DNA from: Escherichia phage D108
Length of the DNA stretch: 37,235 nt
Direction: 5' to 3' (one strand)
Sequence record: NC_013594.1
Both the position numbers and the translations under genes were made by a program. Numbering within the stretch: position 1 is the stretch's first letter; each line of letters opens with the position of its first letter. Below are positions 7,906 to 37,235 of the stretch, in pieces. A model generated the notes under the pieces. That model did not search any database and was not told the DNA's origin. It worked only from the letters and a program-made list of their open reading frames with translations.

Positions 7906-8212
7906 CAATATCCTGCCTTGAAGCCCAGAGCTTATTGAGCAGCAGATCAACATACTCATCGGCCTCAAAATCCAGTTCTTCGAACGTTTTTCGGTTCTTA
8001 TAGCTGGCCTGTGTATTTCTGATGATGTCATAAGCATCGTGCATGTTGATAACACCGTTTTCAATCAGCTTAATCATCAGATTACCGACCAGCATAAAAC
8101 CGGTTATACCAAAGAATTTATCCTGGTTATTAACAGGGGTGTCTTTCTGGTTTGTTTCGAAATCTGGGTTTTGTTCATCATCCGACACCGTATGTTGTTC
8201 TTGTTCAGCCAT
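7853..8212 (-). CDS. Leftward hypothetical acidic protein (119 aa) embedded in the rightward early operon
   Basis: Clean ORF with SD (AAAGGAAATATT-ATG on the minus strand) and CTG-dominated Leu codons. No credible plus-strand ORF covers 7906-8281: the plus-frame extension upstream of gemA translates to junk. Confidence 0.55.
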   Translation of the reverse strand: MAEQEQHTVSDDEQNPDFETNQKDTPVNNQDKFFGITGFMLVGNLMIKLIENGVINMHDAYDIIRNTQASYKNRKTFEELDFEADEYVDLLLNKLWASRQDIVNAGNLSSEHTDTDAVE

Positions 8213-8281
8213 AATATTTCCTTTTATGTTATTACTGAATATGGCGGTGTTGCAGCACCGCCTCTTTCCGGAGGTACGATC

Positions 8282-8833
8282 ATGAGTCGCACATCCCTGA
8301 TTAAATTAATCCATGTCGCCCGTCGGGAGCTACAACTCGACGACGACACTTACCGCGCTTTTCTGATGCAGAAAACGGGCAAAATCAGTTGCCGCGAGCT
8401 TACGGTTACGCAACTGGAACAGGTGCTCGATGCCATGAAAGAACGCGGCTTTAAGAAGCTGAATAAATACCCCCGTCGCCGCTTTAAGGAACATGTCACA
8501 CCCCGCGAGAAGGTGTATAAAATCTGGCAGCAGATGGCAGAAGACGGTTTTATTACCGATGGCGGTGATGTGGCGCTGGATAAATATGTTCAGCGCCTGA
8601 CGGCGAAACGTAATGGCGGACAGGGTGTTTCCACGCTGGCTTGGTGCCACGGAGAATCGTTGCAAGTTGTGCTTGAAACCCTGAAACAGTGGCACATCCG
8701 CTGTATTCGTGAAGCCTTTTCCCGTCACGGGCTTCCGTTGCCGGTCAGTCCGTCCGGGCGTGAACTGCGCGGCTATGATGCCATGACGGCGGCTTATGCC
8801 CATGCCAGAAAGACACGGAGGATGGCACAATGA
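8282..8833 (+). CDS. gemA: GemA-like early protein (183 aa)
   Basis: ATG at 8282 with SD GGAGG upstream; lies immediately before mor as in Mu (the track start at 8039 is an unlikely extension). Confidence 0.7.
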   Translation: MSRTSLIKLIHVARRELQLDDDTYRAFLMQKTGKISCRELTVTQLEQVLDAMKERGFKKLNKYPRRRFKEHVTPREKVYKIWQQMAEDGFITDGGDVALDKYVQRLTAKRNGGQGVSTLAWCHGESLQVVLETLKQWHIRCIREAFSRHGLPLPVSPSGRELRGYDAMTAAYAHARKTRRMAQ

Positions 8834-9219
8834 CGGAAGATTTATTTGGTGATTTGCAGGATGACACCATCCTGGCACATCTTGACAATCCCGCAGAGGA
8901 TGCGTCACGCTTTCCGGCACTGCTGGCGGAGCTGAACGATTTACTGCGCGGGGAGTTGTCCCGGCTGGGTGTTGATCCTGCCCATTCACTGGAGATTGTT
9001 GTGGCTATCTGTAAGCATCTGGGCGGCGGTCAGGTCTACATTCCACGCGGTCAGGTTCTGGACTCGCTGATTCGGGATTTGCGTATCTGGAATGATTTTA
9101 ACGGTCGCAACGTCAGCGAACTGACCACCCGTTATGGTGTCACTTTCAATACGGTTTACAAGGCCATTCGCCGGATGCGACGGCTGAAATACCGCCAGTA
9201 CCAGCCCTCACTTCTGTAA
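8830..9219 (+). CDS. mor: Mor, middle-operon transcription activator (129 aa)
   Basis: Mor/C family; C-terminal HTH region (IPRGQVLDSLIRDLRIWNDFNGRNVSEL...) is paralogous to the C protein at 10012; last gene before the early terminator. Confidence 0.85.
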   Translation: MTEDLFGDLQDDTILAHLDNPAEDASRFPALLAELNDLLRGELSRLGVDPAHSLEIVVAICKHLGGGQVYIPRGQVLDSLIRDLRIWNDFNGRNVSELTTRYGVTFNTVYKAIRRMRRLKYRQYQPSLL

Positions 9220-9296: not shown

Positions 9297-9515
9297 ATGG
9301 GTAAAGGCTGGAATGCATCCTTTCATCTTGGCAGACGTGAGCGGCTGCGTCAGGAGGTTTTGCACCGTGTCGCCGGTGGGCCACGGCCTGCGCCCCGCGA
9401 CTATACCGGTCATGATGGCACCCACGGCAGTTATTACATGAAAGGCTGGCAGTCAGTTGATATGCCGGAAATTCTTCATCATTGCCTGCTTTACAGGGAG
9501 AAACATTATGTCTGA
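9297..9515 (+). CDS. Hypothetical middle-operon protein (72 aa)
   Basis: ORF with GGGGGAAA SD-like sequence; first ORF after the early terminator. Confidence 0.45.
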   Translation: MGKGWNASFHLGRRERLRQEVLHRVAGGPRPAPRDYTGHDGTHGSYYMKGWQSVDMPEILHHCLLYREKHYV

Positions 9516-9870
9516 GCGTTCTGCTCGTCAGTGGCCTGATTTTTTATCGGTGGTGTTACTGGCGCTGTTATTGTGGATAAGTCTGTTTTGTGGCTGGCGC
9601 GCGCTGATGTTTTGCTGTGCCTCGGTTTTCAGTGTTGCTTTATGTGTTGCCGGTGATTGTCTGGATGCGCTGATAATGAGCTGCCGGGTGCCTGAACATT
9701 TTGCCCGGTTCGTCTGGCCGCTGACCTGGCTGGGGAGTCTGTCCGGGCTGGGATTAGCCGTGATGGCAACGTCTCAACTGAAAACGGGTCCTGAGCATGT
9801 CATCTGGGCGCTGGCCGGATTGCTGACGTTCTGGCTCTCCTTTCGTTTTCGCGCTCGTCTGTTCGGGTAA
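9508..9870 (+). CDS. Hypothetical multi-pass membrane protein (about 120 aa)
   Basis: Start likely at MSERSARQ (9508). Several hydrophobic helices (VVLLALLLWISLFCGW; ASVFSVALCVAG; LGLAVMATS; WALAGLLTFWLSF). Confidence 0.55.
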   Translation: MSERSARQWPDFLSVVLLALLLWISLFCGWRALMFCCASVFSVALCVAGDCLDALIMSCRVPEHFARFVWPLTWLGSLSGLGLAVMATSQLKTGPEHVIWALAGLLTFWLSFRFRARLFG

Positions 9871-35129: not shown

Positions 35130-35723
35130 GTGCTGATTGGCTATGTAAGGGTATCAACAAATGACCAGAATACAGACCTGCAACGAAACGCTCTTGTTTG
35201 TGCAGGATGTGAACAAATATTTGAAGATAAATTAAGCGGAACAAGGACAGACAGACCTGGATTAAAACGCGCGTTAAAGCGCCTTCAAAAAGGTGACACA
35301 CTGGTTGTCTGGAAACTGGATCGCCTCGGGCGAAGCATGAAACATCTGATTTCCCTCGTCGGGGAACTACGGGAGCGAGGGATTAATTTTCGCAGTCTTA
35401 CCGACAGCATAGACACATCTTCTCCAATGGGGCGTTTTTTCTTCCACGTTATGGGTGCCCTGGCTGAAATGGAACGAGAACTAATCATCGAGCGAACGAT
35501 GGCTGGACTTGCTGCCGCCAGAAATAAAGGCCGTATTGGTGGGCGACCACCTAAACTAACCAAAGCGGAATGGGAGCAGGCCGGGCGTTTATTAGCACAA
35601 GGAATCCCCCGCAAGCAGGTTGCATTGATCTACGATGTGGCCCTGTCAACTCTGTATAAAAAACACCCCGCGAAACGAACGCATATAGAAAACGACGATC
35701 GAATCAATCAAATCGATCGGTAA
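35130..35723 (+). CDS. gin: Gin DNA invertase, serine recombinase of the Hin/Gin/Cin family (197 aa)
   Basis: N-terminal catalytic domain (LIGYVRVSTNDQNTDLQ, active-site Ser), C-terminal HTH; adjacent to gixR. The recombinational enhancer is expected within its 5' coding part. Confidence 0.95.
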   Translation: MLIGYVRVSTNDQNTDLQRNALVCAGCEQIFEDKLSGTRTDRPGLKRALKRLQKGDTLVVWKLDRLGRSMKHLISLVGELRERGINFRSLTDSIDTSSPMGRFFFHVMGALAEMERELIIERTMAGLAAARNKGRIGGRPPKLTKAEWEQAGRLLAQGIPRKQVALIYDVALSTLYKKHPAKRTHIENDDRINQIDR

Positions 35724-35805
35724 TACAGATCGATTATGTCTCAATAACCACACTCAACCCATGATGTTTTTTAAGATAGTGGCGAATTGATGCAAAGGAG
35801 GTGAG
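35697..35805 (+). promoter_or_regulatory. mom operon control region: three clustered GATC (Dam) sites and C-dependent promoter
   Basis: GATC at 35697-35700, 35715-35718 and 35728-35731, spanning the gin stop; then the com SD AAGGAGGTGAG. Matches the Dam/OxyR-regulated Pmom arrangement known for Mu. Confidence 0.7.
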
Positions 35806-35994
35806 ATGAAATCAATTCGCTGTAAAAACTGCAACAAACTGTTATTTAAGGCGGATTCCTTTGATCACATTGAAATCAGGTGTCCGCGTTGCAAACGTCA
35901 CATCATAATGCTGAATGCCTGCGAGCATCCCACGGAGAAACATTGTGGGAAAAGAGAAAAAATCACGCATTCTGACGAAACCGTGCGTTATTGA
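35806..35994 (+). CDS. com: Com, zinc-finger translational activator of mom (62 aa)
   Basis: C-x2-C...C-x2-C zinc finger (CKNC...CPRC); overlaps the 5' end of mom. Confidence 0.9.
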
Positions 35995-36652
35995 GTATGA
36001 AGGCCAGATTGTTGGCTATGGTTCAAAGGAGCTGCGCGTTGAAACCATATCCTGCTGGCTGGCCCGCACAATTATTCAGACAAAGCACTATTCCCGCCGT
36101 TTTGTGAATAACTCTTACCTCCACCTGGGAGTATTCAGCGGACGCGATCTGGTTGGCGTTCTCCAGTGGGGATATGCCCTTAACCCCAACTCAGGTCGTC
36201 GTGTCGTGCTTGAAACGGATAACCGGGGCTATATGGAGTTGAACCGCATGTGGCTACACGACGACATGCCCCGCAACTCTGAATCACGGGCCATCAGTTA
36301 TGCACTGAAAACCATAAGGTTACTGTATCCGTCAGTGGAGTGGGTTCAGTCTTTTGCAGACGAACGCTGCGGACGTGCTGGCGTTGTGTATCAGGCGTCA
36401 AATTTTGATTTTATTGGCAGCCATGAAAGCACGTTCTACGAGCTGGATGGTGAGTGGTATCACGAGATAACGATGAACGCAATTAAGCGCGGTGGACAAC
36501 GAGGCATGTATTTACGGGCTAATAAAGAGCGTGCCGTGGTGCACAAATTTAATCAGTATCGCTACATCAGGTTCCTGAACAAGCGAGCAAGAAAGCGGCT
36601 AAATACCAAACTATTCAGGATTCAGCCATACCCAAAAAGCAGTTCTGATTAG
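35945..36652 (+). CDS. mom: Mom DNA modification protein (adenine modification, anti-restriction); start uncertain
   Basis: ORF overlapping the com 3' end. GTG at 35945 has GGAG 7-8 nt upstream; the first in-frame ATG (35915) lacks an SD. Body ...[18 protein letters not shown]... through the stop at 36652. Confidence 0.85.
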
Positions 36653-36696
36653 TATCATATAAATTTATGTATTTACTCACATACGGAGCATATTAG

Positions 36697-37143
36697 ATGA
36701 AAAAATCAAAATTGCTAATCAGTACCATCATCAGCCTATTCGTACTAACCGCCTCCTCAGTCAATCACGCTCAAGAAAAAGATTTTGATCCTGAAGTGGC
36801 TGCTGATGCAGTCTTAAGGTCCGCCGGGATAGATCCAGATAAGAGTGTTGCAAATAAAGCCCCTGCCTCTGGTTTTTGGACCTGCCACGGTATTCGTATG
36901 CATATGGGCGTTGATATGGGGTCATGGACAGACCTTGATACAGGTGAACTATACACTCAGATAGAAACAGGCCAAATTGACGAACAAGACAAGGATGAAA
37001 AGATTAAAGGGACTGATTATCTCTATGCTTTGACTAGAAATCCTGCGGTTATAAAGTATTTTATCGTTGATAAATCAGGAAAAAATCTTTATATCCGAGA
37101 TGATGTGAATATTTTTAAGACATATAAATGTAAACGAAACTGA
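36697..37143 (+). CDS. Cargo (moron) gene: secreted/periplasmic protein of unknown function with cleavable signal peptide (148 aa)
   Basis: Own SD (ACGGAG); signal peptide MKKSKLLISTIISLFVLTASSVNHA-QE; two Cys in the mature part; visibly lower GC and rare codons (CTA, ATA, TTA) versus neighbouring phage genes; sits between mom and the right-end sites. Confidence 0.7.
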   Translation: MKKSKLLISTIISLFVLTASSVNHAQEKDFDPEVAADAVLRSAGIDPDKSVANKAPASGFWTCHGIRMHMGVDMGSWTDLDTGELYTQIETGQIDEQDKDEKIKGTDYLYALTRNPAVIKYFIVDKSGKNLYIRDDVNIFKTYKCKRN

Positions 37144-37164
37144 CATACATAAAACAACTGTCTC

Positions 37165-37235
37165 AATTGAAGCGCGAAAGTTTTGAGTTTTCGTATTTTA
37201 TTTGAACGCTTTCGCGCTTTTCGTGCGCCGCTTCA
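37165..37235. repeat. Right end (attR) with transposase-binding sites R1 (37209-37235), R2 (~37186-37208) and inverted R3 (~37165-37184)
   Basis: Reverse complement of the terminus reads TGAAGCGGCGCACGAAAAGCGCGAAAG (R1) and cgttcaaataaaatacgaaaac (R2); TTGAAGCGCGAAAG in opposite orientation (R3). Confidence 0.75.

Follow-up and report, generated by a model that had tools for sequence, protein, structure and literature searches.

A right-end accessory gene of phage D108 belongs to a family of predicted periplasmic beta-barrel proteins of Mu-like phages and may act in superinfection exclusion

Introduction

What is the reading frame that separates mom from the right end of Escherichia phage D108, and what might it do for a phage whose close relative Mu lives without it? 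We address this question in the 37,235-nt stretch of D108 DNA deposited as NC_013594.1 (hereafter, the window). A sequence-only reading of this DNA had taken the frame, here called gene X, for a moron carried for the lysogen, encoding a secreted protein that could act in superinfection exclusion. The moron concept goes back to Hendrix and Juhala, with lambda bor and lom and HK97 gp15 among the examples. That reading further supposed that X might already be catalogued and yet be uncharacterised, which is the case: the gene is annotated as hypothetical or 'D108-specific', and our literature search found no paper that characterises it. X is not known to have been studied, even though Mu and D108 are model transposable phages.

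Results

Gene X is an insertion at the right end of the genome

Alignment of right ends places about 45 nt between the mom stop codon and R3 in Mu, E. coli W and SfMu; in these genomes mom runs straight to attR, as the sequence-only reading had stated for Mu-type genomes. Compared with Mu, the window carries a clean indel of about 500 extra bp between the mom stop and R3-R2-R1, which accounts for the coding segment of roughly 490 bp noted before and holds the 148-aa frame of X (Table 1). A megablast search of positions 35800-37235 against phage records retrieved four near-identical right ends with the X frame, those of Mu_3F6, Yersinia phages vB_YpM_3 and vB_YpM_23, and PhiR68_1, whose record calls the homolog a 'D108-specific protein'; for Mu and SfMu in the same search, similarity stopped at the end of mom. 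The protein is 99-100% identical across these four isolates of different hosts and countries. X is likewise an extra gene with respect to most E. coli prophages: 91 of the 97 mom-carrying complete genomes lack it, and the six unrelated genomes that have it encode one and the same protein (WP_016024192.1).

Table 1. Features of the D108 right end and related elements. Positions refer to the window unless a locus is named.
Feature	Position	Strand	Basis or remark
mom	35915..36652	+	ORF list; Mom in Mu_3F6 and PhiR68_1 records and in RefSeq E. coli prophages
Leader of X	36653..36696	+	44 nt, AT-rich; right-end alignment with second-class ends
Gene X	36697..37143	+	ATG start, 148 aa, predicted exported protein
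Signal peptide of X (predicted Sec)	36697..36771	+	residues 1 to about 21-25
Acidic linker of X, variable	36772..36864	+	family alignment, AF2
Beta-barrel domain of X (predicted), conserved, 8-stranded	36865..37140	+	residues ~57-148
T5 homopolymer within X	36873..36877	+	break point of frameshifted database copies
Mu-type right end (R3, R2, R1 transposase-binding sites)	37150..37235		alignment with Mu right end
Second-class right ends	L019:2239-2320, L020:2239-2315, L003:3354-3440		compare window 36653-36668
Terminator hairpins near X in relatives	L005:7910-7937, L005:8461-8490, L007:8394-8425, L011:7883-7908, L011:8434-8457		

The Mu-type right end of the window starts a few bases past the X stop codon, contains an inverted repeat (AAGCGCGAAAG / CTTTCGCGCTT, at 37170-37180 and 37209-37219) and terminates in ..CGCCGCTTCA. 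A second class of Muvirus right end is found in the E. coli prophages of RM8082 and FDAARGOS_1059 and in Yersinia phage vB_YpM_5. There, the D108-type 3' end of mom (protein ending ..QPYPKSSSD, as against ..QPYPK in Mu) is followed by only ~80 nt with three GTATCAAA-containing repeats, finishing in ..TTTTGCGCGCTTTA before disrupted host genes; by eye, these ends show neither Mu-type R1-R3 sites nor a terminal CA. The window consists, in order, of a D108-type mom 3' end, ~20 nt of second-class end, ~28 nt of X leader, X itself and the Mu-type R3-R2-R1. Since it keeps the first ~20 nt of a second-class end, its right end is a mosaic of both classes. Within the leader of X, the 5' ~16-20 nt (TATCATATAAATTT) look like the end repeat that lies innermost in the second class, and the 3' ~20 nt (ATACGGAGCATATTAGATGA) contain a GGAG ribosome-binding site and are homologous to the leader of another family member (L014; 16 of 20 nt identical). 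Only about 28 nt of the family leader are retained. The GGAG lies at 36685-36688, 8 nt ahead of the ATG, and X does possess a Shine-Dalgarno site of its own, as had been proposed. An alternative derivation, in which the mom 3' end and the leader would be homologous to the promoter region of L005 (63-68% identity), was discarded, the RM8082-type second-class end being the better fit.

Some further details of the segment deserve mention. A 12-nt direct repeat, CATATAAAT(T/G)TA, at 36656-36667 and 37121-37132 (11/12 identical, 465 nt apart) flanks almost the entire X-specific segment; it may be insertion microhomology, a substrate for future deletion, or a chance occurrence in AT-rich DNA. In the R2 site region (~37204-37206, ATTTG-AACGC) the window is one A short of the GAAACGC motif, an A that Mu, Mu_3F6, PhiR68_1 and the A20 prophage all have; either the record contains a sequencing error here or a transposase-binding site has truly changed by 1 nt. 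Antisense frames of 54 and 61 aa within X were set aside as spurious because the conservation pattern fits the frame on the + strand, and an Rfam scan of 35600-37235 gave no significant RNA family.

Composition and selection

The foreign look of the gene was confirmed by GC and GC3 statistics. With a GC content of 0.391 and a GC3 of 0.336, X ranks lowest on both counts among 41 gene proxies in the window (mean GC 0.515, sd 0.049; mean GC3 0.530, sd 0.075), and just 1.4% of 447-bp windows reach so low a GC. The same tendency is seen elsewhere: GC of X was below that of its locus in 8/8 loci tested.

X is more than a chance reading frame, because synonymous sites between diverged homologs are saturated (pS 0.7-0.86) at pN values of 0.17-0.39, and because comparison with the 89%-identical copy of L027 yields a dN/dS of 0.16 at a dS of 0.33. 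L027 is instructive in itself, being a D108-like prophage with a 652-bp deletion equivalent to window 35614-36265 (L027:2525-2535), which takes away the 3' end of gin, Pmom, com and the 5' half of mom and leaves what remains of gin joined to the 3' half of mom. Downstream, X has been preserved whole and under purifying selection (89% amino acid identity), behind a leader 44 nt longer than that of the window. Broken copies exist as well. Frameshifted versions break at the T5 run: one (P0016) reads ..PASGF and then leaves the frame, another (P0003) is the downstream remnant and starts at M68, and an IMG/VR copy (L042/L029) is divided into two frames. These split copies could be homopolymer sequencing errors or reflect occasional pseudogenisation. 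Judged by these substitution patterns, X is a functional gene under purifying selection, and it is a non-essential accessory one; its rarity among close relatives and the existence of frameshifted copies mean that any benefit it confers is conditional.

The X family is confined to Mu-like phages

X clusters numbered 16 in a word-indexed search of 5.8 billion proteins and 12 in an exhaustive HMMER profile search that covered 1.84 billion representatives. X was found in 14 IMG/VR loci and in 3 of 100,044 species-representative genomes, all three Enterobacteriaceae; tblastn against 50,697 phage records recovered the four D108-like isolates only, plus one insignificant match in a Rhizobium phage (E 0.4). 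All hosts are Enterobacterales (E. coli, Citrobacter, Salmonella, Hafnia, Kluyvera and metagenome-assembled Enterobacteriaceae), and every copy with readable surroundings (about 35 loci) belongs to a phage or prophage of the Mu-like kind. The family is tiny and restricted to transposable, Mu-like phages of Enterobacterales.

Its usual home is not the right end. All copies at most 76% identical to that of the window (about 22 distinct loci) lie between gemA and a C/Mor-family gene, which is single in these genomes and precedes a PF00959 endolysin; the most divergent member found (P0022) occupies the same slot. Location after mom is limited to copies at least 89% identical, namely those of the window, the four isolates, the six E. 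coli genomes and L025-L027. In 71 of 82 GemA-anchored Mu-like IMG/VR loci a Mor-family gene comes after gemA at a distance of no more than about 100 nt, compared with a gap of 570-670 nt in X-bearing loci, and X is therefore an insertion in the gemA-C slot as well. In the window this slot is empty, gemA (8192-8833) overlapping mor (8830-9219). The D108 gene is no isolated foreign import: its family is limited to Mu-like phages and is customarily housed between gemA and C.

Orientation within the slot varies. An inverted X cassette occurs in five contexts (L011 with the similar L012 and L013, L016, L032, L034 and L035), where it converges with gemA on a common palindromic hairpin. Three Mu-like prophages that lack X carry in the same slot an antisense frame of 110-117 aa (L044:3028-3360 and L045:3033-3386, both on the - strand, and L046), the product of which has a signal peptide and two cysteines (MKKMIIGLALFASLVSPSFA..) and gave no significant Pfam or PHROG match. 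Profile comparison found the L044 protein to be unrelated to X (probability 1.7%). For small secreted proteins, the gemA-C slot appears to be a hot spot.

Expression signals in the family and in D108

The most complete cassette is that of L005, where gemA is followed by a rho-independent terminator, a promoter-like site (ATGCCA-16-AATAAT, 9/12 match), X and a second terminator, both terminators being of the AAATCCCGC..GCGGGATTTTTT type. The start of X abuts the gemA stop codon in L007 and a terminator follows it, making X the last gene of the repressor-controlled early operon; L014 is alike, with X 60 nt after gemA. A hairpin of the form AAATCCCGC..GCGGGATTT stands just 3' of the X stop in 7/7 non-window loci aligned. 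The AAATCCCGC..GCGGGATTTTTT hairpin is also present 5' of X in L005 and L018, and a degenerate copy takes this place in the inverted cassettes; recombination between such terminator palindromes could explain the inversions. For the inverted group, only a weak promoter candidate was seen by eye.

The copy in the window is set up differently. Scans revealed no sigma-70-like promoter upstream of X on the + strand and no terminator downstream of it; X lacks a terminator of its own because attR begins a few bases past its stop codon. The nearest upstream promoter is Pmom, with no intrinsic terminator detected between gin and X. Activity of Pmom depends on the late activator C, and in lysogens OxyR and Fis keep this promoter silent (PMC3378877). 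Expression of the window copy in the lysogen, which prophage-mediated exclusion would need, is therefore unsupported here, X having no detectable promoter or terminator and standing behind a promoter that is silent in that state. The claim of a moron carried for the lysogen accordingly survives in part. X does lie between genes or sites that adjoin each other in relatives, and its composition deviates; no promoter or terminator of its own is recognisable, and Pmom is lysogen-silent.

A predicted exported beta-barrel protein

The N-terminus of X (MKKSK, then LLISTIISLFVL, then TASSVNHA) combines three lysines, an 11-residue core with a mean Kyte-Doolittle hydropathy of 2.69, and small residues. 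Heuristic analysis of n-, h- and c-regions, used here in place of a dedicated predictor, recognised this architecture in 15/15 aligned family members despite their diverged sequences (core mean hydropathy 2.0-3.2), and X is predicted on these grounds to be exported through a Sec-type signal peptide. The classical signal peptide that had been read from the sequence is thereby supported, and its cleavage after VNHA is doubtful. The heuristic gave cleavage candidates at residues 18-21, and two sites merit consideration, ASS|V after residue 21 and VNHA|Q after residue 25; the former fits the -3/-1 rule better, as the latter would put an unusual Asn at -3. The position, judged from the sequence, is ambiguous, which leaves the predicted export itself untouched. 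No lipobox (L-[AS]-[GA]-C) was seen in the window protein or in the 15 aligned members, which marks X as a non-lipoprotein.

The two cysteines pointed out earlier are a family trait, exactly two being present in the mature part of 15/15 aligned members. C63 (36883-36885) falls on the first strand and C145 (37129-37131) on the last strand of the predicted domain, and a barrel-closing disulfide between them is therefore plausible in the model. Invariant motifs in the 15-member alignment are PASGFW.C.G..HM, W77, K.KG..Y and KYFIVDK.GKNLYIRDD..FFK.Y.CKR. The linker between signal peptide and domain is poorly conserved and is missing from short members such as P0012 and P0008. AlphaFold2, run with the 15-member family alignment as input, left residues 1-28 including the signal peptide disordered (pLDDT <50), placed a helix at residues 32-42 in the linker (pLDDT 66-78), and modelled residues ~57-148 as an all-beta domain of eight strands with pLDDT 90-96. 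According to this model, the domain is a compact 8-stranded up-and-down beta barrel. We call its fold generic calycin-like because Foldseek gave no match at E<0.001 in the PDB or in the BFVD viral structure library; barrels named beside it include the lipocalin fold of Tp0751, the Cap15 barrel, streptavidins, PliC/MliC, PhiA, staphostatin and LupI.

Sequence searches were in line with the statement that the family is not a recognised one, and structure prediction, also run as a check, has been described above. Pfam and NCBIfam yielded no match to X, and PADLOC and a sequence-profile search of the PDB yielded only chance-level matches (Csm2, E 0.036, and E 0.26, respectively). PHROG 15648 matches residues 1-148 of 148 (E 7.6e-88) and is itself a group without assigned function. 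Since tblastn with X found no match in plasmids, X is not sequence-related to plasmid-borne immunity proteins such as pesticin immunity. One protein of 2316 aa (P0025) contains 38 separate stretches that match the last 20 positions of the X profile (KNLYIRDD..FFK.Y.CKR; overall E 5.9e-9); it is probably a repetitive beta-hairpin protein and no true relative of X.

Two middle-operon frames lie between mor and C in the window, at 9297-9515 (+) and 9508-9870 (+). Kinship of X with the membrane protein encoded at 9508-9870 was considered and rejected (hhalign probability 0.1%). Judged by its N-terminus MSERSA, which matches the gp19 cloning primer (PMC9239132), the strongly hydrophobic 120-aa membrane protein among these frames is the equivalent of Mu gp19.

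Discussion

Origin and expression of the D108 copy

The explanation that we favour, at a probability of about 40% for the whole, is that X is an accessory gene of Mu-like phages, brought to the right end of D108 by recombination, and that its product acts as a periplasmic exclusion factor. In the D108 lineage, an X copy that had kept no more than about 28 nt of leader would have entered by illegitimate recombination, the junction partners being the D108-type 3' end of mom and a Mu-type attR. In the process the copy would have lost the usual family terminator, along with the promoter-like region that precedes X in some other loci. With these signals gone, the gene is probably transcribed by read-through from upstream, that is, from Pmom late in infection and perhaps weakly from gin, and would be translated from its own GGAG site.

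A possible role in superinfection exclusion

We picture the product as soluble and periplasmic, a binding protein or inhibitor that would intervene while infection is at the envelope. Its most likely role would be the exclusion of superinfecting phages, especially heteroimmune Mu-like ones: X would bind either a component of the incoming phage or a hydrolase of peptidoglycan, acting as T4 Spackle or P1 Sim act, though with an unrelated fold. The pointers are circumstantial. In five contexts X is antisense to all lytic operons and presumably transcribed independently, and in others it sits at the end of the early operon, an early position like that of T4 sp; both arrangements hint at lysogen or early expression in relatives. 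Periplasmic precedents (T4 Spackle, P1 Sim) and the 8-stranded barrels among enzyme inhibitors may be added to these pointers. Restriction to one phage lineage in spite of deep divergence suggests a target tied to Mu-type biology.

A bolder proposal, which we think rather unlikely to hold in all its parts, is that X founds a new family of beta-barrel proteins that transposable (Mu-like) phages alone possess and that serve in the periplasm for exclusion or inhibition; that the gemA-C slot and, in D108, the mom-attR interval are swap hot spots for small secreted envelope effectors (X and the L044-L046 protein); and that the target is a step found only in infection or lysis of the Mu type, be it the passage of the incoming DNA-N protein complex across the periplasm or the SAR endolysin/releasin pathway.

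Other explanations

The SAR endolysin/releasin pathway through which Mu lyses its host (PMC9239132) offers a different employment for a periplasmic protein. X might regulate lysis by inhibiting or buffering the SAR endolysin (Mu gp22 type) or the releasin that the phage itself makes, which would restrain premature lysis in a holin-less phage. We consider this improbable. The gemA-C position that brings X close to lysis genes is merely an operon boundary, a typical moron site; in five contexts X is antisense to the lysis genes, and in D108 it is 26 kb away from lys. Most Mu-like phages with related endolysins, Mu included, do without X, and the protein has no PliC/MliC motifs and no Pfam match.

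X might instead be a lysogenic-conversion factor without any action on phages, its periplasmic barrel binding a small hydrophobic ligand or blocking an external enzyme (animal lysozyme, a protease) and so aiding survival of the lysogen. The calycin-like fold, common to lipocalins, avidins and PliC/MliC, would suit such a task, as would the SGFW (GxW-like) and TDY motifs, which we take to recall lipocalin signature regions; low GC, the predicted secretion of the product and hosts that include gut and animal-associated Enterobacterales point the same way. A gene of general benefit to the host would, however, be expected on other mobile elements, and X is seen only in Mu-like phages, several of its copies being inside the repressor-controlled early operon without a promoter of their own. 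Neither lipocalin nor MliC Pfam models match at E<=10, and a barrel of ~90 residues without a C-terminal helix is a poor lipocalin. Conversion in this sense seems to us a doubtful explanation.

That the window copy is a mere passenger, brought in by the recombination that rebuilt the right end and kept as harmless, agrees with its missing promoter and terminator, the mosaic of two end types, its absence from most relatives and the occurrence of frameshifted copies, but is very improbable in view of the dN/dS of 0.16 (dS 0.33) between the two after-mom lineages represented by the window and L027, the identity or near identity of the protein in six unrelated E. coli genomes and four phage isolates, and the good Shine-Dalgarno site that has been kept.

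Implications

The role of X should be simple to test, as the right ends of Mu and D108 are near-isogenic once X is set aside. Should X prove to exclude heteroimmune Mu-like phages or to inhibit a hydrolase of peptidoglycan, it would represent a new fold among the few periplasmic exclusion proteins of phages, and it would also point out two defined slots for cargo in the genomes of Mu-like phages. Should X do nothing that can be measured, it would stay an ordinary hypothetical accessory gene.

Comparison with known systems

The lipocalins and other calycins share with X the barrel topology, a G-x-W-like motif on the first strand, a TDY motif and basic residues at the C-terminal strand. They differ in the size of the barrel, that of X having far fewer residues (~90) and no C-terminal helix like the one of kernel lipocalins, and in the place of the TDY motif, which X has on strand 5 and not in the F-G position. 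Compared with lipocalin profiles, the helix and the three signature regions in register, X fails to qualify, no Pfam model matching at E<=10. PliC/MliC, PhiA, Inh/LupI and the staphostatins, periplasmic or secreted enzyme inhibitors built as 8-stranded beta-barrels, are alike in barrel; X matches neither the PliC/MliC family profile (no MliC Pfam match at E<=10) nor the conserved motifs.

Among exclusion proteins, T4 Spackle (Sp) and P1 Sim resemble X in being small, phage-encoded, made with a signal peptide and periplasmic, and sp resembles some X copies in lying within an early operon. The difference from Spackle is one of structure: Spackle is helical, X is predicted to be an all-beta barrel, and the PDB profile search found no sequence similarity between them. 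More generally, known exclusion and defence proteins (PADLOC, T4 Spackle in the PDB, phage records) gave no sequence match to X, and we know of no exclusion phenotype for D108 as opposed to Mu.

With phage morons X shares the location between genes that are adjacent in related phages, the deviant composition, the non-essential nature and the place at transcription-unit boundaries; in L005 and L018 it is even bracketed by terminators and equipped with a promoter-like site. It departs from them in the window, where a recognisable promoter or terminator is lacking, and in several relatives that carry it inside the early lytic operon. The closest companion of X in D108 is mom itself. Both belong to the right-end accessory region, downstream of gin and beside attR, and both are dispensable for growth; but mom encodes a cytoplasmic DNA-modification enzyme under elaborate dedicated control, whereas the product of X is predicted to be exported.
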